From: a virus
Lineage: Duplodnaviria; Caudoviricetes
Reading direction: 5' to 3' (one strand)
Virus record (IMG/VR): IMGVR_UViG_3300025018_000056
Span: 1-38,949 of that record
DNA: 38,949 nucleotides
Position 1 is the first letter of the stretch. Each line of letters opens with the position of its first letter. The notes under the pieces are model-generated. The model made no database searches and was not told where the DNA came from. It was given only the letters and a program-made list of their open reading frames with translations. A program made the position numbers and the translations under genes. Below, piece by piece: positions 9,937-38,949 of this stretch.

Positions 9937-11781
9937 TTAGTTATCGTGTTTAATTAGTAGTTCGGTTTCAGAGATTGCTATCCCAACTTTGCGAGATTGA
10001 GAACCAGCTACTGTTCCTATCGCTCCTGCAGTATCTGATAAATAATAAGTTGTGCCTAGTGTCAAAGCTGTATGATTATCACTAATACCACCAACATTCA
10101 CTAAACCAGAAGCTCCAGATGTTATGTTTGCATCAGCAAAACCAAAAAAGTTTGTAAATAGATAACTTGTGGCAGAGGTAGATTGAGCTTTGTAGATTTT
10201 TACTGTATCAATTATCTGTTCTGTAATAACAAGAGAGAAATCATTGGTTGTTGGTTCACCCCAAGTAGAGCCACCATTTGAAGAAGCTACTATAGTTCCA
10301 CCAGCATAAATTGAACTTGCATTAAGTAACCAAGTTACTTTATTACTTCCATCAGCACTTGGAGCTGAAATTACAATAGCATACTGTGTTGAAGCTTTAA
10401 CAAAATATGGAGAAGTAAAAGTAAAATTCATCTCTGAATAGTTTCCAACACCACTTGCTGCTATAGTAGATACTGCAAAACTTGTTGAAGTTAAAATACT
10501 CCCAGTTGGCTTACCACCAGATGTTGCATAAAGAGAAATAACCACATTGCCTGTTGGAGAATTAACTCGCCCTAATTTAACTTTACCGCCAACTATATTT
10601 ACTGTATTATTAGCTGTAGTAAAAGTTTGTGCTGACCATTCACTTCCATAGACATCTGCACCTGATGTTCCAGCTGGAGAAATAGTAAGTAATGCTGTAG
10701 ATGTGTTAGAAGCAATAGGATAAGTAGAAACAGCATTACCAGTAGTAATATTTTCTCCTGCTACGAAAGATTTCTGTACTTTTGATTTATTATTTATATC
10801 ATCACTCAACCACCCATCATCTAACTTCCCACTCCCATCAGCAATCGGTATCAAGCTAGCAGTAGGGGTTGAGGTGGCAATTAATGATACTAGTGTTGAT
10901 GTACTTAATCCAATACCGCTAGCACCTTGTGTTAAACCTGTTGAACTATCAATGTTTTGATAAATACCAGTTGTTGAAGTCACCATTCCTTTATCGGATC
11001 GAACGTAAACTCCAGCTGTTTCAGGTGAAGTACCTAATACTCTCAAACCTTCGCCTGTTGCAATATTAGCCGCAGTAAAACCACCAGCTCCAACAGTATC
11101 TACATAATATTTAGTGGCAAGTTCTCCGTTAGCGTCTGGTAAGGCAGTAGAAGAAGAAACAATAGGGAATTGATTATAAGTCCAAATGTTTTCAATTATT
11201 TCTGCGTTTTCTTTATTAGCGAAATCGTTATAAAACCCTGCTGTGTTAGATAGGCGGAATAATGAGCCGATTGAGTGAGAAAGTGCTAGACCAGATGTTT
11301 CAGTATAAGGATATTGTGCCAAAGCAGTTTTGACTCCCGTCAAGGTTTTAGTTCCGTCAGAGTTGGTCGTAATGCCTGTAAAAGAGATTGACTCTGATAC
11401 TCCGTCAGGATTTATACGACCATACATTTTAGTTGATGAACCCATTGTAATATCAGTTCCATAGATGTCTTCTAAGTCATCTAAGGTCAAAGTTGTGTCC
11501 CCAGCGGCTGCACCATTATATAGTTGCCAGTCAGATGACTCAATATAAACTCTCGGAGCAGATGATGCGGGTGTAGGAGTGCCACCCAATAAAGGTTCAT
11601 CTAAATCAACCTCTAAACCGATAGGAAGTTTGGTTGGGTCAGTTATGCCATATTTATTTAATTCTGTTCGCCAATTATCACCCCATAATTTAATAGGATA
11701 ATCTCCTTTCTGTACTGTGTAGCCAAAAGCAACAGTAGGAAGAAGCACGAGTGCAAAAATGATTGCGTATATTTTCTTCAT
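9937..11781 (-). CDS. Tail fibre/spike-like protein with signal peptide and LysM-like domain
   Basis: Signal peptide aa 1-20; YTVQKGD...ITDPTKLPIGLEV LysM pattern; ATKYYVD fibre motif; T/S/G-rich. Confidence 0.7.
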   Translation of the reverse strand: MKKIYAIIFALVLLPTVAFGYTVQKGDYPIKLWGDNWRTELNKYGITDPTKLPIGLEVDLDEPLLGGTPTPASSAPRVYIESSDWQLYNGAAAGDTTLTLDDLEDIYGTDITMGSSTKMYGRINPDGVSESISFTGITTNSDGTKTLTGVKTALAQYPYTETSGLALSHSIGSLFRLSNTAGFYNDFANKENAEIIENIWTYNQFPIVSSSTALPDANGELATKYYVDTVGAGGFTAANIATGEGLRVLGTSPETAGVYVRSDKGMVTSTTGIYQNIDSSTGLTQGASGIGLSTSTLVSLIATSTPTASLIPIADGSGKLDDGWLSDDINNKSKVQKSFVAGENITTGNAVSTYPIASNTSTALLTISPAGTSGADVYGSEWSAQTFTTANNTVNIVGGKVKLGRVNSPTGNVVISLYATSGGKPTGSILTSTSFAVSTIAASGVGNYSEMNFTFTSPYFVKASTQYAIVISAPSADGSNKVTWLLNASSIYAGGTIVASSNGGSTWGEPTTNDFSLVITEQIIDTVKIYKAQSTSATSYLFTNFFGFADANITSGASGLVNVGGISDNHTALTLGTTYYLSDTAGAIGTVAGSQSRKVGIAISETELLIKHDN

Positions 11782-11782
11782 A

Positions 11783-13639
11783 TTAAAATTTTAGATTATT
11801 AGACTGCCCTTCAATGGCAGAAATATTTAATGCGTATGAACATAATTCCCATCTTGCTCCAAGTTTCTCGGATTGAAATGATACTTGTAATTCGTAAAAT
11901 GGTCTTTCAGGAATTGATATAAACCCTCTAAATCTTCTCAAACCTGTTTCTGTTAATGTTTCACTTCTTCCACCCAGTGAGCGATTGCCTAGTGAGTAAT
12001 ACCCTAGTCCACCACCAGTTTGTACGATTACCACATTATCATCAGTTCCTTTAAGTGTTCGTTTTACAGACTGTTCTCCGAAGTCGTAGGTAAGGATTAT
12101 ATCCAGTTCGGTATTGGCTCGGATATAGCCATCAACCCACATAAGATTAAACTTCTTCTTATTAAAAGGCAAGTCAAAGTCAGTGTAAGAAGAATACCAT
12201 TTAGCACTTATAGGGGATTGTATTGCTTCGCTTACATAATTGTCCGAGTAGTTAGAGTCAAGGAGTTTATAAGTATTCTTAGTAGCAGGATCGTGAGCAT
12301 AAAGGTCGCCACCATATTCAAATAGCACAGAAGCAGGAATAGTCCAAGGGGTTTCCCAAATACCTAGTCTAAGATTGCGGATTATTATGCGATTATTGGC
12401 GTTATCATCACTATCTTCTTTAATCGTGGTGTAAAACTTATTTTTGTAGTAAGTACTGGAAGCCTTATCTACCCCGGCGACATCTATAAAACCTTTAATA
12501 TCATCGGAAAGGGATATGCTTTGAGGTGTGCTAACATTTTCTACATTACCTAAGAAATCAATCGTTGGCTCTCCACTAGTGTATACAGTGTAGTTTTTCA
12601 TATTCGTTACCGCCAGATTGTTTGTCGCACCTTCTAATGGAGATGTCTTGAGTGGTTTTATAACTATTTCTTCTTTTGAAAGGTCAGAACTAGGACTAAA
12701 TATAAATTGATACCATTGGTTTTTAGTAGAGATATAAAGTGCTTCACCATCTGCTTGTGTAATTACGCTTGTTGGTGTTTCGTCTAGGTTAAAATCAGAG
12801 GCTTCACCAGCTAAACGAGGGAAGGTCGGAGCAGAAAAATCAGTATAGTCAGTATTCTTGCTCATTTCCACAGTATTACGTTGTCTATCAAACACAAATA
12901 AGTAGTTGAGATAAAGCCCTATAAAGTCGTTAGAAAGCCCAGCAGAGGGGGTTGTAGTAGACTCACGCACTTCTTGTAGCACCACTGCCCCAGCAGTTAA
13001 ACTTAATGCTGTAAGGTCAACATCTACCCCCGTTAAAGTCGTAGTACTCTCTCCCCCTGTATAGGTAAAGGTATGCCAAGTACCAGCATCGTCTTTTATT
13101 CTTCCTTGTCGTGTTCCAGCAGTCAAAAAGCGTTCTTCTGCCCACGAGGTAGTGCCTTGTTTAGTTAGGGTATTAGCTGTAGCCGAAGCGTAAGTTGTAG
13201 AACCACCACTCCACATAAAAATAGAGTCAGAACCATCAACGAATAACAATAAGTCTTGCACTTCGGTTGAACTCCACCAACCCAGTAAGTTTCCAGCTCC
13301 TCTGTTTAGAAAACTTGCACCCTGTGTTGCAATATCATCAATTAGAGTTTCCCAAGTAGTGCCGATATAAACCTCTACAAAGCCGTTAGTCCCGTCAGAA
13401 TAAGTCCTAAGAGCATATTCATCGCCTGTGCTTGTCTTCCAAGAGCCACCGTCTAAAATACCATAACGGTCGGTTGAGCGAGTTCCAAGATAAGAAAACC
13501 CAGGGCGAACACCTATTTTAGTGTCGTCAATTACTTCAATGTTTTTAGAGCCAGAAACAGCTACACCAACCTCTTCTACGGTTACATCTTTCTTTTGTTT
13601 GAAGCCTCTCCCAAAATTGTTAATAGACCAATATTTCAT
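11783..13639 (-). CDS. Putative tail nozzle/tubular (P22 gp10-like stabilisation) protein
   Basis: 618 aa beta-rich; early VRPGF motif; follows the adaptor-like gene. Confidence 0.6.
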   Translation of the reverse strand: MKYWSINNFGRGFKQKKDVTVEEVGVAVSGSKNIEVIDDTKIGVRPGFSYLGTRSTDRYGILDGGSWKTSTGDEYALRTYSDGTNGFVEVYIGTTWETLIDDIATQGASFLNRGAGNLLGWWSSTEVQDLLLFVDGSDSIFMWSGGSTTYASATANTLTKQGTTSWAEERFLTAGTRQGRIKDDAGTWHTFTYTGGESTTTLTGVDVDLTALSLTAGAVVLQEVRESTTTPSAGLSNDFIGLYLNYLFVFDRQRNTVEMSKNTDYTDFSAPTFPRLAGEASDFNLDETPTSVITQADGEALYISTKNQWYQFIFSPSSDLSKEEIVIKPLKTSPLEGATNNLAVTNMKNYTVYTSGEPTIDFLGNVENVSTPQSISLSDDIKGFIDVAGVDKASSTYYKNKFYTTIKEDSDDNANNRIIIRNLRLGIWETPWTIPASVLFEYGGDLYAHDPATKNTYKLLDSNYSDNYVSEAIQSPISAKWYSSYTDFDLPFNKKKFNLMWVDGYIRANTELDIILTYDFGEQSVKRTLKGTDDNVVIVQTGGGLGYYSLGNRSLGGRSETLTETGLRRFRGFISIPERPFYELQVSFQSEKLGARWELCSYALNISAIEGQSNNLKF

Positions 13640-13643
13640 ATTT

Positions 13644-14771
13644 TTAATAGAATGACTTTTCTTTTTTTCTCATTGTCGGGAATTTAAGTTTATAATTTTG
13701 TTTAGCAGTTAGATAATCTTTTTCAATTCTTGTTAAGTCGTTTTCTCCCATAGGAATACGCTTTGCTACCTCATAAGTACATCTCCTAGCCCAGACCTTA
13801 AATTCTTCTGGATCAGCGTTTAGAATATCAGAGTCAGCAGTAGATGTTTCTTGCCAAGTGCCACCAGAAGTTCTCCAAGCGTAAATTGAATTGTAAAGTA
13901 AGTCATAACCATCACCCTCAGCGAAAAATAGTGAGTCAAAAATTATGTCGCTAGTAGAAGCTACAGAATAAGTTGCTGTTATTTTAGCGTAGTCAATCGT
14001 GTCCTCATCAGGAGAACCAGTTTCTGTTTCACCACTTCTATCAAAACCTACCAAGTTCCAACCCTCTACAAAAGCGGTAAGATTAATCGGAGTTGTAGCT
14101 GTTGCCGAATAGTAGTTTGAAGCGTCATTGCCGTATAAGAGTGTCAGACTGGTTAGGTTGGTAATAGTTGGCAAATAAACCCATACAAAGCCATAAGTAG
14201 AGTCCGAGATATCTACTTGCGACATTGTAGAATTGACGATTGAATTGCTTGTGCCTGTATTAGTAATCTGAATAGCATAGTCGCCTGAAATAAAGTTAGT
14301 GGCATTTAGAACAATAGCTGTGGCATCATCAGTCGCAGTCCAAGTCCCGTTATCAGTCAAAGACTCCATTGTGTGTAAAGTCTTAGAAGCGTTTGAAGTA
14401 AAGTTTCCTACTAGCCATTTAAGACCTTTATCATAATCAAAAGCAAAGGTATCGGACTCTTTATTTGTGAACCATTTGCGTAAATCTACTTTACGATAAT
14501 TAGTGTAAGAGCCTGTATCTTGATATTTATACTTCTGGATATCAATCAATGCCTCGTCAGACATATCTGTTGGGAGTGGATATTTAAAAACATTGTCCCA
14601 CAAAGCTCTAAAAGTTCGTGTGTGTCTTTGCAAAGAGCGATAATCAAAGTCTGTTATTTCGTCTCTAATAGCGTCATTTATTACAGTACGCAAATTAGGA
14701 GTGACGCTATCACTTTGATTTCTTGTTTCTCCGTCTATGTAGTTCTTTAGATTTAGATAGTTATATGACAT
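13644..14771 (-). CDS. Putative head-tail adaptor with inserted beta-sandwich domain
   Basis: Helical N- and C-termini (INDAIRD, KYPLPTD) around a CBM-like region (EGWNLV, IIFDSL). Confidence 0.55.
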   Translation of the reverse strand: MSYNYLNLKNYIDGETRNQSDSVTPNLRTVINDAIRDEITDFDYRSLQRHTRTFRALWDNVFKYPLPTDMSDEALIDIQKYKYQDTGSYTNYRKVDLRKWFTNKESDTFAFDYDKGLKWLVGNFTSNASKTLHTMESLTDNGTWTATDDATAIVLNATNFISGDYAIQITNTGTSNSIVNSTMSQVDISDSTYGFVWVYLPTITNLTSLTLLYGNDASNYYSATATTPINLTAFVEGWNLVGFDRSGETETGSPDEDTIDYAKITATYSVASTSDIIFDSLFFAEGDGYDLLYNSIYAWRTSGGTWQETSTADSDILNADPEEFKVWARRCTYEVAKRIPMGENDLTRIEKDYLTAKQNYKLKFPTMRKKEKSFY

Positions 14772-14811
14772 ATTAAAGTATTATTTTTTCCAAAAATATA
14801 ATTATATTTAT

Positions 14812-14839
14812 CTCTCGGCTCATCGGTTTAAGCCGAGAG
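14812..14839. terminator. Intergenic hairpin after the peptidase gene
   Basis: Perfect 9-bp stem CTCTCGGCT/AGCCGAGAG. Confidence 0.55.
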
Positions 14840-14847
14840 GAAATATA

Positions 14848-16113
14848 CTATTTAAATTGATAGTAAAGTTTTCTAGCAATCCCGTATAAGGTAAAACTTG
14901 CTGTAATAATCACACCAATATAATTTACCACTTCGTCAATTAGTGTTTCTGGGATATCTAAGTTAAAAAAACTTACTAACATTACTATTAAAGGAACAAG
15001 CGATTTTAGAGTTAAACTAATCTTTTCTGGATTAGCACTTGAACCTAATGAAGGATATCTTCTTGTTATGTTCATATTGTTGGTTAATAAATAATTTAAT
15101 TTTTCTATAAATGTTTTTGGTACTTGCATAGGTTTTTCACTTCCTTGCACAGGTTTTTTTGTTGTAATCCAATATTCAATCGGATAAGGAAATTCTTCTA
15201 CACTAACTCTTGGAAGTTCTTTGTAATCATCTACACCATAAAGAGTTTTAAATAATTTACCACCTGCTACTTCACCATCTGCAAAAGCCATCATAGCCTC
15301 TTCACCTTCAACTTTTACGGCGATAGTTGGCTCACCTACTTTTTTATATGTTGTAATCATATTGTTTTTTTTAATTGAGTGAACAGCTGGGAATTGGAAT
15401 TTATAATCTTTGTGGAAAGCAATTAATTGTTTGCTCTCGCTATCAAATACTATTTTCTTGTCGTCTTTCGGACCGAGATAAAGTACAGCGTGAGAATAAG
15501 GATTACCTGCATTAACTATTACTCCGTCTTTCCAAATGTATTTACCTTCTACTGCGACAGTCACAGGGGATATGCTAAGAGCTTCTTGATAAGCATAAGC
15601 GTCTTGTTGAGAGCCAAAGAATTGGTATCTTACCTCATAACTTTCTCCTCTTTTTTCTACGATAGCTTTTAAGTCATCACTAATTTTCTTTGAGTAATTA
15701 TATTCTACTGTCTTATCTCGTTCAGTTGGAAATTCACTTTCCCAAGCACAAAATTTTCTTCTCATTACTTCAAACACTTTTTCAAAAGAGTTACCACGCC
15801 CTGGGATAGTTCCTGTAATTATAGCCGAGTAAAGTTCAGACCAGTTTACTTCTTGATTATATCTTTTTTTGTAAATAAATTCCCAAGCATTAGTAATGGA
15901 ATTATTAGTACAGTTGTATAAATCACCATCTAAAACTCTTTGTATTTCTGGCTCAATATCTATATCCCACCAGATACCAGATGTATTAATTTGCTCTAAT
16001 TGTATAGCCGCCCCCAAAATATGAGCTTCTTCACTTACAGGCTCTATGATTAAGTTTCCTTTAGGCTGAATTAAATCTTCTTCCCTAGTAACTAGCTTGT
16101 CTATTAATTGCAT
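14848..16113 (-). CDS. Papain-fold (clan CA) cysteine peptidase fused to a C-terminal holin-like 2-TM domain
   Basis: Oxyanion Gln and Cys in EIQ...YNCT; His in YSHAVLYLG; Asp in VFDS; two C-terminal hydrophobic helices ending GIARK. Confidence 0.7.
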   Translation of the reverse strand: MQLIDKLVTREEDLIQPKGNLIIEPVSEEAHILGAAIQLEQINTSGIWWDIDIEPEIQRVLDGDLYNCTNNSITNAWEFIYKKRYNQEVNWSELYSAIITGTIPGRGNSFEKVFEVMRRKFCAWESEFPTERDKTVEYNYSKKISDDLKAIVEKRGESYEVRYQFFGSQQDAYAYQEALSISPVTVAVEGKYIWKDGVIVNAGNPYSHAVLYLGPKDDKKIVFDSESKQLIAFHKDYKFQFPAVHSIKKNNMITTYKKVGEPTIAVKVEGEEAMMAFADGEVAGGKLFKTLYGVDDYKELPRVSVEEFPYPIEYWITTKKPVQGSEKPMQVPKTFIEKLNYLLTNNMNITRRYPSLGSSANPEKISLTLKSLVPLIVMLVSFFNLDIPETLIDEVVNYIGVIITASFTLYGIARKLYYQFK

Positions 16114-16232
16114 ATAATTTTACTTAAAATTAAACCTATTAATTTATACCACCCCCACGCTAACAATAAACACCAAACTAATATAACAGTTCCGAATAGT
16201 AGATAATAAAATGCTGTTCTTCGTCTGTCCAT
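16104..16232 (-). CDS. 42-aa membrane microprotein (MDRRRTAFYYLLFGTVILVWCLLLAWGW...)
   Basis: Hand-translated; fills the gap; basic N-terminus plus TM helix. Confidence 0.55.
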   Translation of the reverse strand: MDRRRTAFYYLLFGTVILVWCLLLAWGWYKLIGLILSKIICN

Positions 16233-16244
16233 ATTTTTATGGTT

Positions 16245-16451
16245 TTAAATATACTCCTTTATTATTATGAAAATTATCGGCAATAAAATAACTTCTGTAA
16301 TGAGCAATGCACCAATTATTTTATTCTGCCACGCTTCTAATTTATTTACTCTACCATTAGTTTTTGTGGTTTGGATTATTACTGCGTCTAATTTAGAATG
16401 AACATTTTCTAATTTAGAATCAAACAGTTTTTCAAGGTCTTGAACCTCCAT
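16245..16451 (-). CDS. Small coiled-coil + TM protein (XhlA/holin-like)
   Basis: QTTKTNGRVNKLEAWQ followed by a C-terminal TM helix. Confidence 0.6.
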   Translation of the reverse strand: MEVQDLEKLFDSKLENVHSKLDAVIIQTTKTNGRVNKLEAWQNKIIGALLITEVILLPIIFIIIKEYI

Positions 16452-16526
16452 ATTTAATTAAGTTATTTTAAAAGGTGGTAGTTTTAAGGATAGGCACTAC
16501 CGAGCCTTGGTGGGGATAAAGAGCAG

Positions 16527-16736
16527 TTAAGTGGTGGGATGTTCTTCCCAATAGGCAGAGATGTTTCCACATCCACAGCAGAGGTGTAGTATTTCCAAAC
16601 TTTCGTCTTGCGGGTTATAGCCTACAACCTGCGTTCGTTCCTTCTTGCATTTGGGACAGACTTTGACTTCATAAGATAAGTCATTTTCATATCCCATAGC
16701 TCGGAAGTTTGGTCGGTCGTAATCACGCTTTCCCAT
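16527..16736 (-). CDS. Zinc-ribbon protein (likely start 16736)
   Basis: CPKC...CCGC; purine-rich GAAAGG upstream of ATG 16736. Confidence 0.6.
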   Translation of the reverse strand: MGKRDYDRPNFRAMGYENDLSYEVKVCPKCKKERTQVVGYNPQDESLEILHLCCGCGNISAYWEEHPTT

Positions 16737-16941
16737 TTCTGTCGCCTTTCTCAAAAATCCAGTCCAGTGAGTTATTCCACCATTCATTCCATTGCCCTTT
16801 AGTGGGGCGAATTTTCATCACATTGCCACATTCAAGGCAAGTGAGTTCCAAATAGTGAAATAAGCTAATAAAGGTAGTCTGGTAATGAGTATGCGTTTGA
16901 CACTTCGGACATTTGACAGTCCATTCTTGAGGTATTCTCAT
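16723..16941 (-). CDS. Zinc-ribbon protein (likely start 16941, MRIPQEW)
   Basis: CPKC...CLEC; GGGAGG SD upstream; ATGA overlap with the upstream ORF. Confidence 0.65.
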   Translation of the reverse strand: MRIPQEWTVKCPKCQTHTHYQTTFISLFHYLELTCLECGNVMKIRPTKGQWNEWWNNSLDWIFEKGDRNGKA

Positions 16942-17033
16942 CGTGTTTCCTCCCAGTTTTGTCCGTCTTGCGTGGTGTAAAGAACCATTCTTGCCAGTAT
17001 GTATCCGACTGGCACTATGCGTATTAGCCACAT
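16938..17033 (-). CDS. 31-aa peptide (MWLIRIVPVGYILARMVLYTTQDGQNWEETR)
   Basis: GGAGG SD 8 nt upstream; its TGA overlaps the next ATG. Confidence 0.5.
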   Translation of the reverse strand: MWLIRIVPVGYILARMVLYTTQDGQNWEETR

Positions 17034-17098
17034 CGCTTTTGCCTCCGTTGTTAATTCCCCCAATTATGCCTACCTAGTAGATAGGCACTATGGAAAAG

Positions 17099-19096
17099 TT
17101 AAGTTACCAACCCTGTTATATTCCAAGGATTACTAACCTCATAAGTAATACCAGCTTCATTTTGCAATACTACACCTTTTAATATTCCTTTTTGATTCCA
17201 TTGGGAAGTATAAATTGCACCCAAAGAACCTGCACCGATATTTGTATTATTATTAATATAAAATGTAAAATTATTTCCATAACCACTATAAGGAGACGCA
17301 CAAGATCTATTATTAGCACTATTCATTACGACATTTTGTATATAGAAAGTTCCTCTACAACCATTACCCGATATACCTATTAATGTTGAATCCACGGCAG
17401 AAGCAACATTTGAATAAATTACTGTTCCAAAATCTGTCCCAGCTGAACCATAATTCACACTCACACCAGAACCAGAAAAATCAGCAACTAATTTACTTAA
17501 ATCACCTTTATAAAGAAAGGTTAAATTTACAGCTTCATCACAACTATTAACTGTTAATTTACCACTCATTACAACATTAGACATCAAACCTTTAAATACA
17601 CTGGTCATTAAACCACTTGCACTAGCACCCCAAACAACATCATTTATCACAAGAGAATCAGTCCCATCGTTGGCAGATTCTACATCATAAGCTACTCCAT
17701 TATGAACGAATTTATAGCTTGTTGGATTTGCTTCAACATCTGACAAACTCCAATTTAAGCCACCTTTGGTGATTGTTGTTTTACCAGCAGGATTATTTGG
17801 GTCTAAAGTAGAATCATACAAAGCAACGTGAGCTCCCACTGTTGAACCATAGGTTTTAACAGAATAAGCCGAACCACCATTAATAATCACTCCCCCATTA
17901 GTTTCTTCAAAAGTCCAATTTTGTCCTTCATAAATTATCAAATCCGCAGTTAAGGTATAAGTACCAGCTTTAACAAAGAAACTTTTATCTTCGCCTTCAA
18001 CAGTTGAGGTTTTATTTAAAGACATATAATCGCCATCGCCTACTACATCGCTTATTTTAATATCGTAACCACCACGATCATACAAAACAGCTTTGCTATC
18101 TTTTAGAAGTTTGCCTAGATAAATACCAGCCATTAATTGACCGTTGGTGTCAAAATGAGTTTCGTCTGTATTTATAGATAAACCACCTGTTTCAACTATT
18201 TTAATTCTAGTATCGGCTGTGGCGTTGGTAACTTTAGCGGAATTTATTGTTCTTCTATCCGCACTACTTGGATTAACTTTATAATTTAGAATACTTTTAA
18301 TTGGATAACCGATATCGCTTTCTATATCAGCAAAGAATTGAGCCTCTGAAGCAGCGTAAGTTGAGGTAGCGGTCGTATCATCTTCACCTTGCCACCACAT
18401 CAAAGTAATTACAGGGTTATATCCCATTGCCTCCATTTGTGCGATAGCTAGTAATGCTTTAGCTTTTGCCGCCTCATAAGTGTCATCGCCTTTATTCCAA
18501 CTATTATCAGCAAAACCAGTACCACCTATTGCGTATTTAACTAAGAAATTTTTTTCAGGGTCGCTTTCTTCTAAATATCTAGCTAAGCCTAATTCTGGTC
18601 CGAAATCTTGACCTGCCAATAAATAGGCATTTGATTTTATAGCCAGACCAGTTTGTCCGCTTGAACAAGTACCTTGAATCGTAAAGTAATCTTCGGTTGT
18701 AGTATTTACTTTATACACTCCATCACAATCGGTAGAGCTTGAAATTTTAACACTTCGTAAAGTCTGCATATTGTGTCCTGTGGAGGAAACAATAGAAGTG
18801 CCATCGCCGACATCGGTTATGTTTTGGATTTCATAAGAAGTTCCATTCCATAAATTCATATCCTTAAAAGTAGCACTAACCGAATCAAACACTTGAAATT
18901 TTGGATAACTTTCTTTGGCAAGTACATCGGCTGACACTTCATATAAACGACCAATACCCTCGGCGTTTGATTGACCAAATTCAAGTATAAGGTTTACATC
19001 TTTTGGCATTGTCTTTGTCGTAGCACCCATATAGACACCTGTGTTACATAATAAAGCGATGATTACTGTTGCTATGTATATTTTTATGTTTTTCAT
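17099..19096 (-). CDS. SGNH sialate O-acetylesterase (SASA/CE6-like) plus beta-helix-like domain; probable virion appendage
   Basis: GQSN, GPE, WWQGE and DETH motifs; N-terminal signal peptide. Confidence 0.8.
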   Translation of the reverse strand: MKNIKIYIATVIIALLCNTGVYMGATTKTMPKDVNLILEFGQSNAEGIGRLYEVSADVLAKESYPKFQVFDSVSATFKDMNLWNGTSYEIQNITDVGDGTSIVSSTGHNMQTLRSVKISSSTDCDGVYKVNTTTEDYFTIQGTCSSGQTGLAIKSNAYLLAGQDFGPELGLARYLEESDPEKNFLVKYAIGGTGFADNSWNKGDDTYEAAKAKALLAIAQMEAMGYNPVITLMWWQGEDDTTATSTYAASEAQFFADIESDIGYPIKSILNYKVNPSSADRRTINSAKVTNATADTRIKIVETGGLSINTDETHFDTNGQLMAGIYLGKLLKDSKAVLYDRGGYDIKISDVVGDGDYMSLNKTSTVEGEDKSFFVKAGTYTLTADLIIYEGQNWTFEETNGGVIINGGSAYSVKTYGSTVGAHVALYDSTLDPNNPAGKTTITKGGLNWSLSDVEANPTSYKFVHNGVAYDVESANDGTDSLVINDVVWGASASGLMTSVFKGLMSNVVMSGKLTVNSCDEAVNLTFLYKGDLSKLVADFSGSGVSVNYGSAGTDFGTVIYSNVASAVDSTLIGISGNGCRGTFYIQNVVMNSANNRSCASPYSGYGNNFTFYINNNTNIGAGSLGAIYTSQWNQKGILKGVVLQNEAGITYEVSNPWNITGLVT

Positions 19097-19120
19097 ATTA
19101 TGTATTTCATATTATGTTTT

Positions 19121-20416
19121 TTATCTTGTATCTAAAAATGCATTTAAGTCTTGAACGGTTATTACATCACCATTGTTTGAAGAAGTCAGCCATATCTCAA
19201 AGAAGTCATCTTTTTCAATATCTTCAATGTAAGCAATAAGTGAAAATCCATAAGGTTGATTAGCGGTAATAGTTCGTACAGTAAAAGGAGAGATTATAGT
19301 GCCAGTTCCATTTTTCATTATTCCAACATTAACATTCCTGTTTACAGCACCTGCCGATAAATTTCCTGAAACATATATAGTACCGTCTCTTGAGTAACTA
19401 GGCTGATAGGTAGCCTTGTTTAAATCAACAGTAATCTTTTGGGAATAATACGTACCAGTAGCAATCTCTACTTTGTAATAAGTTCCTGCGGTAGTAACAA
19501 TAGTCGTGGAAACATTATCAACAACATTTAGTTTGGCGTGTGGTTTCCAATCTTCATCACCGACATTTGAAAGCCCTACGATATTAGCATCTCTTCCGTC
19601 TGTTCGTGTAAAGTCAAAACCTGAAAACATTGTACCAGTAGAGTTATAAGAGCAACCGATTATCTCTGCAAATTCTCCATACCCGAAAGCTTCCCCATCA
19701 TATTTTATACCGATCGAGGTTGATGCGTTTTCAAAGATAATATTTCGGATTATGAATTGATCATTAGTGGATGTGGCTAAGTAAATACCAATTCCGTTAT
19801 TCTCAAAATTACCAACTTCAATATCTGTTCGTGCTGATAATGGGTTAGAATGACTGACTTCCACTCCTGTATTCATATCAGAGAATACAAAGTTATAAAG
19901 GAAAAACTCTACCCCTGCTGTATCGTAAATACCTCTATAAAAAGTATCAACAAATATATCAGTTATCTCACTGTAATTAGTTCCGTTTTGTGTGAAATTA
20001 ACAAAACTTTCTGTCGTAAGAGTCCCATAATCAGCAAGAGTAGCACCAGATACTGTCATTCTATTTATATCAGCCTTACTTCGTAAATCAAACATCGGTT
20101 TATTAGTGAGTCCAGTCCCAGCTACTAATCTCGTAACTCCTTGCCCTAACCCACGAATTACTAAACTATGAGTAGAACTAACTGTAATTGTGTCAGTTAT
20201 TTCGTGGTCGCCTGTATCAAGTAAAATATCATAGTCTTTTGTGGCGTTAGCGTCAAACCAATCCACTGCTTCTTTAAGAGTGGTATAATCTCCTTTTATT
20301 CCAATATTGATACGATTATCAAGTTTAGTAACAGAATAAGTAGTAGCACCTAAAACACCAACTCCACCAAGTAAGCTAAGAAGTGCAACTAGAATGTAAT
20401 TAAGTGCTTTTTTCAT
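19121..20416 (-). CDS. Pectin-lyase-like beta-helix protein (tailspike-like) with signal peptide
   Basis: GDYTTLKEAVD...LDTGDH...LVIRGLG beta-helix cap motif. Confidence 0.65.
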   Translation of the reverse strand: MKKALNYILVALLSLLGGVGVLGATTYSVTKLDNRINIGIKGDYTTLKEAVDWFDANATKDYDILLDTGDHEITDTITVSSTHSLVIRGLGQGVTRLVAGTGLTNKPMFDLRSKADINRMTVSGATLADYGTLTTESFVNFTQNGTNYSEITDIFVDTFYRGIYDTAGVEFFLYNFVFSDMNTGVEVSHSNPLSARTDIEVGNFENNGIGIYLATSTNDQFIIRNIIFENASTSIGIKYDGEAFGYGEFAEIIGCSYNSTGTMFSGFDFTRTDGRDANIVGLSNVGDEDWKPHAKLNVVDNVSTTIVTTAGTYYKVEIATGTYYSQKITVDLNKATYQPSYSRDGTIYVSGNLSAGAVNRNVNVGIMKNGTGTIISPFTVRTITANQPYGFSLIAYIEDIEKDDFFEIWLTSSNNGDVITVQDLNAFLDTR

Positions 20417-20417
20417 A

Positions 20418-22610
20418 TTATAAACAAGATTCAGTTGATACTGTTAAAACACCATCAAGAGTAGTTAAGTAAGTCCAACCCCCTAAGTCAGTATCTTGAA
20501 CTGGAATACAACCTGCTTTTACACCAGCCACACCGACACTCATTGTGGAGGTAGTAGTACCACCAGCAACTTGTAAATCAAAAGCTGGAGTAGAAGTACC
20601 GATACCTACTTTATCTTTAATGTACCAATCACCACCTGCTGAATACATCGCCCAGTTATTTCTTGAACCTATGCCAGAATGGTCGCCCATATAAATACCG
20701 TAGTTATCTAAAATAGATAATTCATTACCACTTCCTTTGTAAGGGATATGAGCATTAACAGCTATCGTTGTAGTTACAGTAGAACTAACCGAGTCATAAG
20801 TATTTGATATTGCTTGAGCAAAAACACCAGTTGCTTCGTCTATTGATAAGTTTGCGTTGCTTTCGCCTAATTCGTTAATACCATAAAGACCAATAGCGTC
20901 ATAAGTTACTGACCTAGTATTTGTAGCGTTAAAGTAATTCCAACCAGAAGCACCCAAAACTGTTGGTACACTATTAGCAGATGAACCGCTATCAGTATAA
21001 CCACCTAAAATACCTTGAGCAAAGTTATATGTTTGATTTAATAGTCCATCATCTTTAGCCCAAAATTGACCTGCTATTTTACTTAGAGATGAACCAGTTA
21101 CTGCTGGTGTAGCTAAATCAATATCATCAATGTAAAATACTTCATTACCAGCACCATCATCATCTTGCCCATAAACTAGGATATTTAATTGTCCATTAGC
21201 AGGTACAGTAAAATCTGAAGTGGTGTATTCTGCATAAGCACCAGTAAGCTCTTGAGCATTTTGGTAAGCAGGGCTAGTAAATTCTGACCCAGTAAATGCA
21301 TCCCAAGTGCTTGAAGTGAAGTTCCAAATTTGATTAGCTGTTGCAAAAGCATCATTTAAAACAATCACTTTACCAGCCCCAGCGGTTGCGTATCTAGCCC
21401 AGTATTGAACATTATAAGTAGCACCAACTGTTAGACCTGTATTTAGTTGCTCTATAACAGGAGGAATACCACCATCGTTTGTAAATTTACCTGCATAAGT
21501 TCCCGAATGAATGATTGTTGATTCTTGTTCTAAAGTTGGGTTGTTAGCAAAGATAATAGTATCCCAATTAGTAAGGGCAGTTGAAGAAGCCCAAGTTTCC
21601 AAACCTCCGTCTGTTAAAACATCAGAGCCACGAGGAGTCACCGCACCAGCTTCAGTTAACCCAACAACATTTACGGTTGATTCAGAGTATGGATAATCAA
21701 ATGCAGTAGAAACACCAGCGTCTGAAACATCTAGAGCTGACATTTTTATATCACCTTTTCCAGATAAAATATAAGGGTTAGTTCTATTGTGAGAAAAATC
21801 TAAGTATTCACCTTGTGCTGATGAGAATAAATTACCAGAAGTAACATAAAAGTGTGGGTCGGTAGTGTGATTTGGTATTCCTGAAGATAAGAATTTATTG
21901 CCATTAGCAGTATAGATTAAATTACCATTAGCAGTACGAGGCCACATTTTTGTTTCGACAACTCCACCGCCTACATTGTAAGACATCCAACCAGCTTCTA
22001 CGCTAGATTGACCTGTACCTAAATACATACCATTACCAAAAGCGATATAACCGATTGCGGCTATATTATTTTGGAAGTAAGCGTTTTTGAGAGAGTCAAA
22101 GTAAACAATTTTTGTTCCAGCCGCACCATTTTTGGAAGCATACATTGCTAATTGACCTTCGGTGTTTGTTCCAGTAGCACCTTCTGCTTGAAGGTACATA
22201 TCCCAAGTATCTGCTGTTAAATCATTTGTGTCCCAAACACTAGAACGAAATATACCTTTATATGACGGCACATCTGTGTCGCTTACAGTAGCTGTTCCTG
22301 TTTTATCTACTAATAAATTTCCTTCATAAGTTGAAGTGCCTGCTATTGTTGTATCGCCTGTAATAGTAAGGTCGCCGACATCTACTAAATTAGCACCGTT
22401 GTAATCTACATAAGCTACGTCATCGTTAACTTCAATGAAAGTATCAGTACCGTCGGATTTTTTTTGTTGACCAGAGTCTTCTGTTCTAGCACCGACACAT
22501 TGTTCTTCGTTTTCTGGTAAAGAACAATCAATTTCTTGTTTATCACAACCTGCCCCCACTACTATAATGAGTGCAAAGATGGATATTAGTGAAAGCAGTT
22601 TTTTGTTCAT
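20418..22610 (-). CDS. Fibre/adhesin-like protein with lipoprotein signal and CBM4/9-like domain
   Basis: VVGAG-C lipobox; LTDGGLETW...FYIDDIDL galactose-binding-like domain; VGIGTSTP motif. Confidence 0.65.
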   Translation of the reverse strand: MNKKLLSLISIFALIIVVGAGCDKQEIDCSLPENEEQCVGARTEDSGQQKKSDGTDTFIEVNDDVAYVDYNGANLVDVGDLTITGDTTIAGTSTYEGNLLVDKTGTATVSDTDVPSYKGIFRSSVWDTNDLTADTWDMYLQAEGATGTNTEGQLAMYASKNGAAGTKIVYFDSLKNAYFQNNIAAIGYIAFGNGMYLGTGQSSVEAGWMSYNVGGGVVETKMWPRTANGNLIYTANGNKFLSSGIPNHTTDPHFYVTSGNLFSSAQGEYLDFSHNRTNPYILSGKGDIKMSALDVSDAGVSTAFDYPYSESTVNVVGLTEAGAVTPRGSDVLTDGGLETWASSTALTNWDTIIFANNPTLEQESTIIHSGTYAGKFTNDGGIPPVIEQLNTGLTVGATYNVQYWARYATAGAGKVIVLNDAFATANQIWNFTSSTWDAFTGSEFTSPAYQNAQELTGAYAEYTTSDFTVPANGQLNILVYGQDDDGAGNEVFYIDDIDLATPAVTGSSLSKIAGQFWAKDDGLLNQTYNFAQGILGGYTDSGSSANSVPTVLGASGWNYFNATNTRSVTYDAIGLYGINELGESNANLSIDEATGVFAQAISNTYDSVSSTVTTTIAVNAHIPYKGSGNELSILDNYGIYMGDHSGIGSRNNWAMYSAGGDWYIKDKVGIGTSTPAFDLQVAGGTTTSTMSVGVAGVKAGCIPVQDTDLGGWTYLTTLDGVLTVSTESCL

Positions 22611-22613
22611 ATT

Positions 22614-23075
22614 TTATTGATTATTAAATAGTCTCATTTTTACAGTTGAAGTTCCTGCTGTTCTAGTCCACATTGCAGTGCAGGAATAAGCACCGTCTAT
22701 ATTAGCAACAAAATCTCTAACTTCTGAATTATTAGTTTCTACAAAACCAGTATCGCCATCATAAGAAGTGCCATCTTCTCTATCTACAGTTTGTACATAA
22801 TCCCAACGATTAGTCACTGAGGCAGCTGTAGCAAAATCTACGTCTTCTTGTGGTGAACAGGCAAATTTTAGAGTTCCACTTGCACTTGTATTAGCTACAT
22901 TAAAAACAATATTGCGATAGTCGTTTGTCAGAAACTCTGCTCCAACAGTAGTGGTAGCGACCTCACTCATTATTGTCCTTTCGCCAGTGTTCACACCAGC
23001 ACCTAACTCGTTTATGCCATATCCTCCTGCTAGAACAGTAAGGAAGGCGGCAATCCCCAATAGTATTTTTTTCAT
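22614..23075 (-). CDS. Structural-module protein with signal peptide
   Basis: MKK plus hydrophobic stretch; beta-rich body; lies in the structural operon. Confidence 0.6.
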   Translation of the reverse strand: MKKILLGIAAFLTVLAGGYGINELGAGVNTGERTIMSEVATTTVGAEFLTNDYRNIVFNVANTSASGTLKFACSPQEDVDFATAASVTNRWDYVQTVDREDGTSYDGDTGFVETNNSEVRDFVANIDGAYSCTAMWTRTAGTSTVKMRLFNNQ

Positions 23076-23112
23076 ATATATATATTAGCCTTCTATTAAG
23101 AAGTTATTAAGT

Positions 23113-23159
23113 AATTTTAGTTTGAGAGGAGATAGTAAATCCCCTCTCATCAAAAACTA
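23113..23159. terminator. Intergenic hairpin after the capsid gene cluster
   Basis: TGAGAGGAGAT...ATCCCCTCTCA imperfect stem; an A/C mismatch would be G-U on the - strand. Confidence 0.5.
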
Positions 23160-23160
23160 T

Positions 23161-23910
23161 TTAGGAAGCAGAACAAGTTAAAGCACTTGCTGTCAATGTA
23201 CCAGAAGCACCAATGAACCATTTTACACCATTAGAACGAAGCTCGATAAAATCACCGAGGTTTTCTAATTCAGCATCAATGGTTATTGTATCTTCGGCAT
23301 CACAATCTACTACAGCACCAGCTACAAGCAAAGCACCTTCAATAACATCAGCTAAACTAGCAGTTTGAATTGTACTTGTTGTAGACATAGCACTATCTAC
23401 TACGAATTTGTAGTAAACACCAGCAGAGGTTGAAGTAGCAGGAAGCACGAATGCTGTACTGCTAACACCACCAAAGTAGAAAGTTTCACCAGACATCGCT
23501 GCAGTTAAAGTTGTGGTAACTGTTGCAGTTAGGTTAAGGTCGGTATAGCCTTCAAGACCATTAAAACCTCCACCCATTGTTACTGCACCAGCTACATCTA
23601 AAGTTCCGTCAAGTTCAACTGCTCCATCAAAATATGATGTACCATCAACTTCAAAATCTCCATATTCAAATAATGAATTGATTGCCATCCAATCATCAGA
23701 AGCAGTCAAGTGAGTAGGTTCAGATGTATAAGAGCCACCCAAAGTTTCGTTTTCTATTTGACCCAAGAGACTACTAGCTACTTTTTCAGCTACTATCTCC
23801 CAAAATCCACCTGGGGTTGCAGACACACTACCTACTAAAACAACGAAACTTAGTATTCCAACTAACCCAAATAGTATTTTATTACGAATTGTAAGTTTTT
23901 TATTAGTCAT
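23161..23910 (-). CDS. Putative capsid decoration/head fibre protein with N-terminal TM or signal peptide
   Basis: Directly after the major capsid gene; VDGTSYFDGAVELDGTLDV fibre-like repeats. Confidence 0.55.
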   Translation of the reverse strand: MTNKKLTIRNKILFGLVGILSFVVLVGSVSATPGGFWEIVAEKVASSLLGQIENETLGGSYTSEPTHLTASDDWMAINSLFEYGDFEVDGTSYFDGAVELDGTLDVAGAVTMGGGFNGLEGYTDLNLTATVTTTLTAAMSGETFYFGGVSSTAFVLPATSTSAGVYYKFVVDSAMSTTSTIQTASLADVIEGALLVAGAVVDCDAEDTITIDAELENLGDFIELRSNGVKWFIGASGTLTASALTCSAS

Positions 23911-23933: not shown

Positions 23934-24872
23934 TTAAGTCGTTCCGTTTGAACCGTAAACTCCAACGTAGTCTTGACAGCCAATCACTTCTCTAAACTCA
24001 CCTTTGTAAATGTAAGAGTTATTTCTTTGGAATTTATAATCTACCATATCAGTAAACAAAGGAGTTCTTACATAACGAGTCATTGCGTGATTATTTGCCA
24101 ATAAGTACCAATATGCGTCAGCACCAGAGATACCAGTAGCCTTTGCTCCTAAATGTGGAGAAGTTGCTACATAGATACCATATTTGGTTAAGAATACATT
24201 TGGTTCGTTATTAGCAGTGTTTGGTCTAAGTTGAGACTCAGCCAATTCACAAGCTGTCTTATAAAGAGTCAAAGGCACTAATAAAACAGATGCAATACAA
24301 CCTCTAACAACACCAGCCTGATCTTGTTGTTCACCCAAATCTACAATAGCATCATTAAGTGAAGTTGGAGCAAGAGCTGCGGTAGCTAAATTATCTACTG
24401 TCGCACCACTAATTGTAGTGTGAGAATCAGAGAATATATAATCACCATCAGCTACTTTATTTGTAGCAAAGCCATCTGCCCAAAACTTCATTGCGTTTCT
24501 GTCACGAGTAACTCGTGCCATTTCAGCAAAGTTCCTAACCATTTTTTCATAAGAACCGTGCATATTGTCATCAAAAAAGTGTTTTGGGATATCAATACTT
24601 TCAGCATAAGCATTCACATTATAAGTAGCCTTGTTTGCGATACGAGGAGTTGAAGAGTGAACATTCTCTTCTTCTGCTCGGTCTTGCCAATAAGTTATTC
24701 CACCAAAGGTTTCAACCTGAACAGCAGCATTATCAGCTGTAGCTTGATTGAATATAGCGGAACTCTCGGCAGTTACGTAGTTCATTTTTTCTTGACGATT
24801 ATATTCTTGGTAGAATACATCATCAAGAGCTGTTTTAACCACGTTTGGATTCATTCCTGAATTAAAACTCAT
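23934..24872 (-). CDS. Major capsid protein (HK97 fold, Mu gpT-like)
   Basis: 312 aa; follows the scaffold gene; LLVP motif; C-terminal DYVGVYGSNG. Confidence 0.8.
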   Translation of the reverse strand: MSFNSGMNPNVVKTALDDVFYQEYNRQEKMNYVTAESSAIFNQATADNAAVQVETFGGITYWQDRAEEENVHSSTPRIANKATYNVNAYAESIDIPKHFFDDNMHGSYEKMVRNFAEMARVTRDRNAMKFWADGFATNKVADGDYIFSDSHTTISGATVDNLATAALAPTSLNDAIVDLGEQQDQAGVVRGCIASVLLVPLTLYKTACELAESQLRPNTANNEPNVFLTKYGIYVATSPHLGAKATGISGADAYWYLLANNHAMTRYVRTPLFTDMVDYKFQRNNSYIYKGEFREVIGCQDYVGVYGSNGTT

Positions 24873-34233: not shown

Positions 34234-34890
34234 TTAAATTAAAATTTGTTAACTCAATCTCTTTTTAATTATTTCACAATACTCACTTAATATTTCAAAA
34301 CCAATATAATTTCTATTTAAATCCATACAAACACAAACTATTATACCACTACCCATAAATAAATCGTAAATTATATCATTTTCTTTTGAACTCATTAAAA
34401 TAAACTTAAAAAATAACTCTATCGATTTTTGAATAAAATGAACTCTATTTATAAATACAAATATTAATAAATAAGATTTTTCACAATTTCCATTAAATAA
34501 AACATTTCTTTTTTTTACCATCACACATAATTCTCCACTTGATAACCAAAAATATTATCCATTCATTATATTAAAATTTGATTTTACCCAACAAAATTTC
34601 CTTATAATTAAATCATTATTTTTACATTCTTCAAATATATAAAAAAACTATTCATCAACACAAAAAATATAAACACCATTTTTAAAAACTCTAATCATTT
34701 CTTTTATCCATTATAAAACAGTTTCAATACTAATTCCTTTATCCCATTCACCAAAATCTATTTCTCTTAAACCACCATTTTCTTGTGAAATATTGTATGG
34801 AATATCTGTTATTACCAAATCCACAAAATTATCAGGCATTCTTTTCATCGTCTCAAGACAATCTTCATTATAAATCTCATTTATTTTCAT
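34234..34890 (-). pseudogene. Beta-class N4-C/N6-A DNA methyltransferase inactivated by C-to-T hypermutation
   Basis: IYNEDCLETMKRMPDNFVDLVITDIPY N-terminus; degenerate HFIQKS and DLFMGSGII; stops at 34711-13, 34648-50, 34555-57 and 34249-51. Confidence 0.92.
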
Positions 34891-38418: not shown

Positions 38419-38766
38419 ATGAAATTACAGATACCTGCAACCATACAATCTTTTAGGACAATGGCTGATAGTGGAATAAGACTAACCGTTGATACCCAAG
38501 AATTAAGTCCAGAAGCAAGTCAAGCCCTTTTAACACTTGTTAAGAAATTTGGTTGGTTATTATTTTCTGAAAATCTTATGAAAGAAGAAGATGTGCCAGA
38601 AGATAAAGCCCCTGAATTCAAATCTGATAAAAGCCCTAGCAAAAGATTAAAAGATTGTCTATTCGTTTATTGGAAAAATAACACTAAACAAACTAAAGAC
38701 TTTGAAACTTTTTGGAGAGAATGGATTGATAAGAAATGCAATGAGATAAAAGATTTATTACCTTAA
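38419..38766 (+). CDS. Conserved phage hypothetical protein (likely start MKLQIPA)
   Basis: RTMADSGIRLTVDTQE...KSPSKRLKDCLFVYW; AT-rich start context at 38419. Confidence 0.7.
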   Translation: MKLQIPATIQSFRTMADSGIRLTVDTQELSPEASQALLTLVKKFGWLLFSENLMKEEDVPEDKAPEFKSDKSPSKRLKDCLFVYWKNNTKQTKDFETFWREWIDKKCNEIKDLLP

Positions 38767-38800
38767 TTAACCAAAGCCAACTAAACAATTAATTTTTAAT

Positions 38801-38949
38801 ATGAAAAATATGTCAAACGTAAACGTGGACAATTCTAGCTACTTGTACAATTCTAGCTACGTGGACAATTCTAGCTCCGTGTACAATTCTAGCTACTTGT
38901 ACAATTCTAGCTACGTGGACAATTCTAGCTACTTGTACAATTCTAGCTA
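38801..38949 (+). CDS. True N-terminus (MKNMSNVNVDNSSY...) of the hexapeptide-repeat protein; continues at 128-659 across the junction
   Basis: ATG at 38801 follows the genome-typical TTAAT context and is in frame with GTG at 38825 (= position 3). Confidence 0.85.
   Translation, partial: MKNMSNVNVDNSSYLYNSSYVDNSSSVYNSSYLYNSSYVDNSSYLYNSS
38823..38949. repeat. 127-bp terminal overlap identical to bases 1-127 (assembly circularisation)
   Basis: The last 127 nt match the first 127 nt exactly. 127 is a common assembler k-mer. The ORF starting at 38801 continues in frame into position 3. Confidence 0.9.

Follow-up and report, generated by a model that had tools for sequence, protein, structure and literature searches.

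Tailed phages are thought to build all parts of their particles in the cytoplasm. Filamentous phage coat proteins carry signal peptides; type V pilins of Bacteroidota (Mfa1/FimA) mature from a lipoprotein precursor that is then cut by Arg-gingipain; and poxvirus I7L cuts AG/X (a slash marks the cleaved bond throughout), African swine fever virus (ASFV) pS273R cuts GG/X and the adenovirus protease matures virion proteins. Here we analyse the 38,949-base virus record IMGVR_UViG_3300025018_000056 (the window, meaning the whole stretch of DNA that was analysed), a complete record with direct terminal repeats, in which six proteins encoded downstream of the capsid gene each bear a leader followed by a short hydrophobic-Gly motif. 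In the reading that we favour, at a probability of roughly one half, outer parts of the particle would be exported as tethered precursors, possibly glycosylated, cut free by a papain-family (C1A) protease of the phage, and would join the particle at lysis.

Each of these systems shares part of this arrangement. In type V pili, as predicted for the window proteins, an exported, membrane-tethered structural precursor is set free for assembly by a second protease that acts outside the membrane, but the product is a cellular pilus and no phage particle, and a host enzyme cuts after Arg. In poxviruses, ASFV and adenoviruses, a single viral cysteine protease cuts pro-segments off a number of unrelated virion proteins at short Gly-containing motifs, as would be the case here; these are eukaryotic viruses, however, whose clan CE enzymes act inside the cell, whereas the window, from a tailed phage, pairs a clan CA protease of family C1A with Sec-type leaders. 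Filamentous phages also route virion proteins via Sec, yet they extrude a filament with no head or tail after one signal-peptidase cut and have no second motif. By analogy, the predicted route works like type V pilin maturation together with Gly-motif maturation of the pox- and adenovirus kind, and belongs to neither. What this case would add is a second cut, a matching protease and an A-[ST]-S-T motif. Full-text literature searches, largely outside subscription journals, turned up no paper on tailed-phage virion proteins that are exported and cut twice. The accessible part of a report on a patescibacterial phage (PMC13059738) does not describe such a route, and in the accessible part of the HFTV1 structure paper (PMC12494034) the term 'signal peptide' is absent and no export route is described.

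Leaders, motifs and the predicted cut

The six genes lie on the minus strand. Next to the capsid gene, a 249-amino-acid (aa) post-capsid protein of family F1 (23161..23910), a predicted head decoration or head fibre, has a Sec-type leader and LG/G at aa 57-59 (nucleotides (nt) 23734-23742). It is followed by a 153-aa jelly-roll protein of family F2 (22614..23075), a predicted vertex or decoration protein with a signal anchor and LG/A at aa 24-26 (nt 22998-23006), and by a 730-aa protein (20418..22610), putatively a fibre, with a GAG-C lipobox (Cys22) and VG/A at aa 39-41 (nt 22488-22496), an arrangement that recurs in two related loci (L080 and L091). A 431-aa protein (19121..20416), spike-like by its position, has a leader and LG/A at aa 22-24 (nt 20345-20353); neither it nor the 730-aa protein has a family match. 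The leader of a 665-aa protein (17099..19096) precedes MG/A at aa 23-25 (nt 19022-19030) and an SGNH acetylesterase domain at aa 163-327 (PF03629, E 1.3e-18). The last, a 614-aa tail protein of family F3 encoded after the nozzle gene (9937..11781), has a signal peptide, a LysM-like region at aa 21-60 and LG/G at aa 65-67 (nt 11581-11589), beyond which lie a tail-attachment-like domain (aa 77-204), a carbohydrate-binding jelly roll (aa 359-524) and a cement-like C-terminus. Pfam PF01476 does not match the LysM-like region of the window protein itself; the region aligns with a Pfam-positive LysM homolog, and PF01476 is over its cut-off in 7 of the 20 homologs scanned.

All six leaders and motifs were found where the earlier note on this DNA had placed them on minus-strand open reading frames (ORFs). 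Leaders were called by an in-house hydropathy rule, under which a basic n-region, a hydrophobic h-region and an AxA site or lipobox are present, as in precursors of signal peptidase I (SPase I) and SPase II, and export by Sec is highly probable. Besides the six, a single ORF of 90 aa outside the module passes the leader filter among the 27 window ORFs scanned on the capsid strand (3000-34872), and the capsid, portal, scaffold, adaptor, nozzle and ejection proteins fail it. Type IV prepilin leaders were considered and rejected, as the motif comes after the hydrophobic stretch in all six window proteins; two tail homologs (L159:274-1533, minus strand, and P0160) have prepilin-like starts (KG/FALI and RG/FAIL) and retain a hydrophobic-Gly motif downstream. 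In the 665-aa protein (17099-19096), the Met of MG/A at aa 23 might double as an internal start giving a leaderless form.

All six window proteins have [LMV]G[AG] no more than 70 residues from the hydrophobic stretch, where shuffles predict 1.2. This pattern was chosen post hoc, which makes homolog sets the fair test. In 84 de-duplicated related loci, 94 leader-bearing proteins are encoded downstream of the capsid gene, and 85 remain when nine short holin-like ones are dropped; LG[GAS] stands within 50 residues after the leader in 44 of these 85, against 8.3 expected (z 13), and in 22 of 246 similar windows in proteins of leaderless phages. The motif is therefore enriched in homologs, above the chance frequency that the earlier note had named as its refutation. 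Homologs of the 249-aa protein bear a leader in 116 of 120 cases, from a search whose query included the leader and which favours leader-bearing forms; 87 have [LFMI]G[GAS] and the other 29, judged by eye, a hydrophobic residue and Gly followed by another residue. Across 51 leader-bearing tail homologs the third residue is free (A in 25, G in 9, F in 5, Y in 3, S in 3, and others), and the conserved unit is therefore hydrophobic-Gly-any rather than GG or GA. The hydrophobic-Gly part of the proposed [L/M/V]-G-[A/G] motif thus stands, and its fixed third residue falls. Position P5 is acidic in 28 of the 51. In a model of the 614-aa protein, the motif lies in a linker with a predicted local distance difference test (pLDDT) score below 50 that joins the LysM-like part to the first folded domain, agreeing with the expectation that it would sit at the edge of a fold.

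Leaderless versions of these genes occupy the corresponding positions in sister phages. Mapped on a capsid tree with 29 leader-bearing and 40 leaderless members, the leader trait switches 11-12 times, with at least five changes forced by well-supported branches of the quick tree (a quick tree and FastTree were used), and three genomes (G005, G014 and G022) mix leader-bearing and leaderless proteins. No gene restricted to leader-bearing genomes was found among 18 genomes clustered. Genome G187 underlies none of the claims made here. With-leader and without-leader orthologs and many switches within one phage family make this a natural experiment.

The motif Gly coincides in position with the initiator Met of leaderless proteins in three families that are unrelated to one another. 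For the tail family we aligned the 81 homologs whose match spans the N-terminal domain and dropped one with a doubtful start. Measured from a fixed anchor, Met is 31-34 residues upstream in all 29 leaderless proteins and the motif Gly 27-39 residues upstream in all 51 leader-bearing ones; the Gly was that of the last hydrophobic-Gly within a 21-residue window, a rule that picks a less plausible site in a few rows. In the post-capsid family, a T-[HN]-F anchor is present in 28 of 40 leaderless and 8 of 29 leader-bearing proteins; position -4 from it is occupied by Met in 21 of the former and by Gly in 7 of the latter. In the jelly-roll family, with one longer fusion dropped, Met stands at -5 to -7 (nine proteins) and Gly at -6 to -8 (six). 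A cut after the Gly would leave the same small N-terminal residue as Met removal. The segment ahead of the motif varies, being a bare anchor, a lipobox, or a signal peptide plus LysM, plus an unnamed helical domain or plus a coil, and the motif is constant. By these alignments the leader would serve as a tether that can be taken off, be it a signal anchor, a lipobox or a signal peptide followed by LysM, and the shared register of Met and Gly places the cut after the first Gly, at hydrophobic-Gly/X, which we regard as quite likely. Export or membrane tethering with release by a second cut, as the earlier note had proposed, is thus well supported by the register, the linker site and the LysM and lipobox tethers.

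Homology to virion parts and gene position suggest that the exported products probably join virions. In the 614-aa model, residues 77-204 match a chain of the phage GP4 portal-tail complex (Z 8.8, root-mean-square deviation (rmsd) 4.8), residues 359-524 the phi812 baseplate (Z 17.7) and the C-terminus mycobacteriophage capsid proteins (Z 9.5); family F3 follows the nozzle gene and is present in 16 of the 18 genomes, almost invariably as a single copy. The fold of the 153-aa protein is the XepA/YomS jelly roll (Z 15.1, rmsd 1.7-1.9, 107 residues aligned; next match 8.6). In the part of the source available, XepA of PBSX is exported, as is predicted for the 153-aa protein, and a capsid-vertex position is proposed for the XepA and YomS (SPbeta) pentamers; XepA has no transmembrane domain, unlike the window protein with its N-terminal anchor and cleavage-type motif (PMC6834076).

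A papain-family protease and an A-[ST]-S-T motif

Between the fibre and adaptor genes, the minus strand encodes a 421-aa cysteine protease (14848..16113) with Q58, C68, H208 and D224, whose reading frame continues into a holin-like C-terminus (about aa 347-421). The four residues are invariant, and the best profile matches are to ficin (E 2e-6), ananain and cathepsin L; PF00112 is over its cut-off in relatives and not in the window protein. By these matches the protein belongs to papain family C1A. No signal peptide was found in it, and LG/A stands ahead of its catalytic domain (aa 33-35, nt 16009-16017). Of its five closest homologs, four stop at about 350 aa; one other likewise carries the fusion. 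In two related loci (L146 and L074) the protease gene directly follows F2, the predicted decoration gene, in the structural operon, and one related genome (G023) encodes a separate amidase besides its C1A.

Papain-family enzymes prefer a hydrophobic residue at P2. At the position of the propeptide junction, [LFM]G is present in 12 of 12 enzymes of leader-bearing phages and in 0 of 10 from leaderless or mixed phages; the first 18 enzymes showed this pattern, and four rows added afterwards all fit it. The pattern occurs in both clades of the protease tree. The residue at papain position 67, which lines the S2/S3 pocket, is small in 11 of 12 enzymes of leader-bearing phages as against 2 of 9 others (numbering from the ficin alignment). 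Given a second cut, these patterns argue, with modest confidence, that the phage C1A is the releasing enzyme. The predicted cut sites are exact, and in vitro assays of the candidate enzyme would not require a cultured host. Short C1A peptidases of the bacterial xylellain type are known in Caudoviricetes, and the accessible part of the source gives them no role in virion maturation (PMC10380794).

The leader-bearing proteins also share an excess of A-[ST]-S-T. Leader-bearing tail homologs contain 99 occurrences against 8.3 expected from local shuffles, and leaderless ones 2 against 4.7, at similar Thr contents of 14.2% and 13.8%; at least one is present in 44 of 51 leader-bearing tail proteins versus 2 of 29 leaderless orthologs. 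Across loci the rate per 1,000 residues is 3.6 in leader-bearing proteins, 0.16 in the same phages' other proteins and 0.17 in leaderless phages, and in the six window proteins [ST]ST occurs 24 times against 5.7 expected. The sites are scattered across 48 alignment bins of the tail family, and at one aligned site exported forms read ANATST where leaderless forms read ANATAT or ANATIT. N-glycosylation sequons are equally frequent in leader-bearing and leaderless tail orthologs (15.5 versus 15.0 per 1,000). Export and an excess of a Ser/Thr motif mark the substrates of bacterial general O-glycosylation, and A-[ST]-S-T is, marginally on balance, a candidate O-glycosylation site. The host transferase family PF13231 is present in 5 of 5 candidate hosts and in 9 of 14 controls, and so does not discriminate. 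Disulfide folding was rejected as an evident reason for export, with Cys at 4.4 and 4.2 per 1,000 residues in leader-bearing and leaderless tail orthologs. A DNA-pattern count for one coding of ATST in five host genomes was at or below control in four, the fifth exceeding it through a single repeat array; in the host region G473:C1:814614-823267, most units of a 216-base repeat contain the ATST-coding pattern.

Under the favoured reading, the core particle would be built in the cytoplasm, while the predicted head decoration, fibres and tail spike would be exported as precursors and parked on the membrane or wall, where they might be glycosylated at A-[ST]-S-T sites outside the cytoplasmic membrane. 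At lysis the holin would open, and the C1A protease would escape and mature; it would then free the parts after hydrophobic-Gly, and these would dock on emerging particles. Parking could keep receptor-binding parts from diffusing off or blocking the receptors of neighbours, with the last step timed to lysis. If so, phage papain-family proteases would gain a role, and Patescibacteria, the probable hosts, a candidate protein-modification motif and a route to host-glycosylated virions. The broadest form of the proposal is tentative: tailed phages of Patescibacteria might run a second, lysis-coupled assembly line, with the host glycosylating a so far unreported A-[ST]-S-T sequon and the virions being completed outside the cytoplasm.

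Points against the route and rival explanations

Several observations weigh against this route. In 20 of the 51 leader-bearing tail homologs, including the window's, the Gly lies 39 residues out, 5-8 beyond the leaderless Met; in all 20 this stems from a short insert. One leader-bearing genome rated 100% complete (G013), whose tail protein has VG/T, shows no C1A in six frames and has an M23-like gene instead, and no C1A was found in leader-bearing G022 (85% complete) or G021 (69%). C1A enzymes also occur in leaderless phages, two of them with peptidoglycan-binding domains, and by its architecture the window's C1A-holin fusion fits an endolysin. Three independent lineage pairs test the protease link and all agree (p 0.25); five test the Ser/Thr motif, of which about three agree and none opposes (p 0.25). 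In host genomes the A-[ST]-S-T excess is mild in one (G434: 8 versus 1.8 in exported proteins, and 10 versus 3.7 in non-exported ones), and the motif is not raised in G029, G065 or a mixed host sample.

A serious alternative, though less likely than the favoured route, is that a host protease outside the membrane cuts at hydrophobic-Gly and that the phage C1A is an endolysin, whose own site lets the host enzyme activate it only after release. The leader-bearing genome without a C1A (G013) would then be expected, and the C1A gene does lie next to a holin or fuse with one, and M23 or amidase genes can take its place. Host proteins offer some further support: an anchor, a linker and [VI]LG were seen by eye in 4 of 29 host DD-carboxypeptidases, and LG[GAS] occurs in 16 of 119 host exported proteins against 7.6 expected and in 7 of 56 against 3.3 in a second set, but G065 shows no excess (3 of 44 against 2.7). 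This explanation leaves unaccounted for why the protease's S2-wall residue varies with the leader trait; G013 and G022 carry plain AxA signal peptides on several of these proteins, and a host enzyme would cut the tethers before lysis. The four carboxypeptidases are from Patescibacteria (L261, L266, L273 and L281) and have the [VI]LG arrangement ahead of the catalytic domain. A general host VLG motif was discarded as weak or absent in host exported proteins.

It is unlikely that the exported proteins stay off the particle, as virion-derived domains reused on the surface of the infected cell for receptor masking or a superinfection block. LysM and lipobox would indeed hold them on the cell, and the accessible part of the XepA paper gives a precedent that also counts against the favoured route, in that XepA of PBSX is exported as the phage develops and is missing from mature particles (PMC6834076). 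Yet the proteins replace their leaderless orthologs one for one in the same slot, as the sole copy of the post-capsid and post-nozzle genes, and their N-terminal capsid-binding-type motif keeps an exact register that would be relevant only if the leader is removed.

Still less probable is the absence of any second cut, with hydrophobic-Gly a hinge left from leader acquisition and the proteins anchored in a membrane that the particle takes with it, as a vesicle or by budding. Gly is common in linkers, and cleavage is predicted rather than observed; against this, the hydrophobic residue and Gly come back in families that are not homologous and behind tethers of different kinds, with the acidic P5 noted above, the trait switches repeatedly on the capsid tree, and a tail-attachment domain held on the membrane or wall could not dock on the nozzle. 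Finally, the papain-fold C39 peptidase cutting after GG or GA that the earlier note had invoked is highly improbable and can be set aside: most tail homologs (37 of 51) do show GG, GA or GS, but the third residue is free and often F, Y, T, I or V, the leaders are Sec-like, the register puts the cut after the first Gly, the adjoining protease is a C1A, and no C39 match was found in the phage proteins scanned (22 from the window and 78 from related phages).

Virus, gene setting and host

The window encodes a terminase, a portal and an HK97-type (gpT-like) capsid, after which the module follows on the same strand, and these three proteins fit a short-tailed (podovirus-type) member of Caudoviricetes. 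The major capsid protein (23934..24872, minus strand), which has no leader, served as the anchor gene for comparisons. Two further leaderless proteins of the minus strand would belong to the cytoplasmic core, a predicted 375-aa head-tail adaptor (13644..14771), kept in 17 of the 18 clustered genomes, and a predicted 618-aa tail nozzle (11783..13639), kept in 15; neither has a PDB or Pfam match, and both are named from synteny alone. LG is repeated near the C-terminus of the predicted nozzle (about aa 545-562, consensus SLGxxSLGxxPLGS) in leader-bearing and leaderless phages alike.

The host is probably a member of the Patescibacteria, because of capsid homologs, the assemblies that hold related loci, and lipobox counts. 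Named capsid homologs come from Moraniibacteriota and Paceibacterota assemblies, and related loci lie in assemblies of Moranbacteria, Paceibacterota, Falkowbacteria and several others, possibly misbinned. The GAG-C lipobox pattern gives 54 matches versus 27 for the control in 31 genomes of the Falkowbacteria class and 15 versus 21 in 31 of the Paceibacterota class, and the box also occurs in host-like ORFs (5 of 12 loci read). One leader-bearing relative (L050) is a prophage in a Blastocatellia contig, accompanied by an integrase and flanked on both sides by GC-rich host genes; a search of 401 Patescibacteria genomes for more prophages of the window's capsid family returned only the known one. 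The Blastocatellia prophage (L050:10934-17539) has LRG, FKG and LAG at the ends of its leaders, a form of the motif in which P1 is unconstrained, consistent with papain-type P2 recognition.

Promoters and terminators in the window are at chance level. At L039:10001-16790 the structural genes look split into short ORFs under translation table 11, and a recoded stop codon is possible. Two short ORFs at 34249-34890 of the window resemble fragments of a DNA methyltransferase gene, and an ORF of tandem seven-residue repeats (Y-x-D/Y-N-S-S type; 3-659 plus 38760-38949) spans the terminal repeat.

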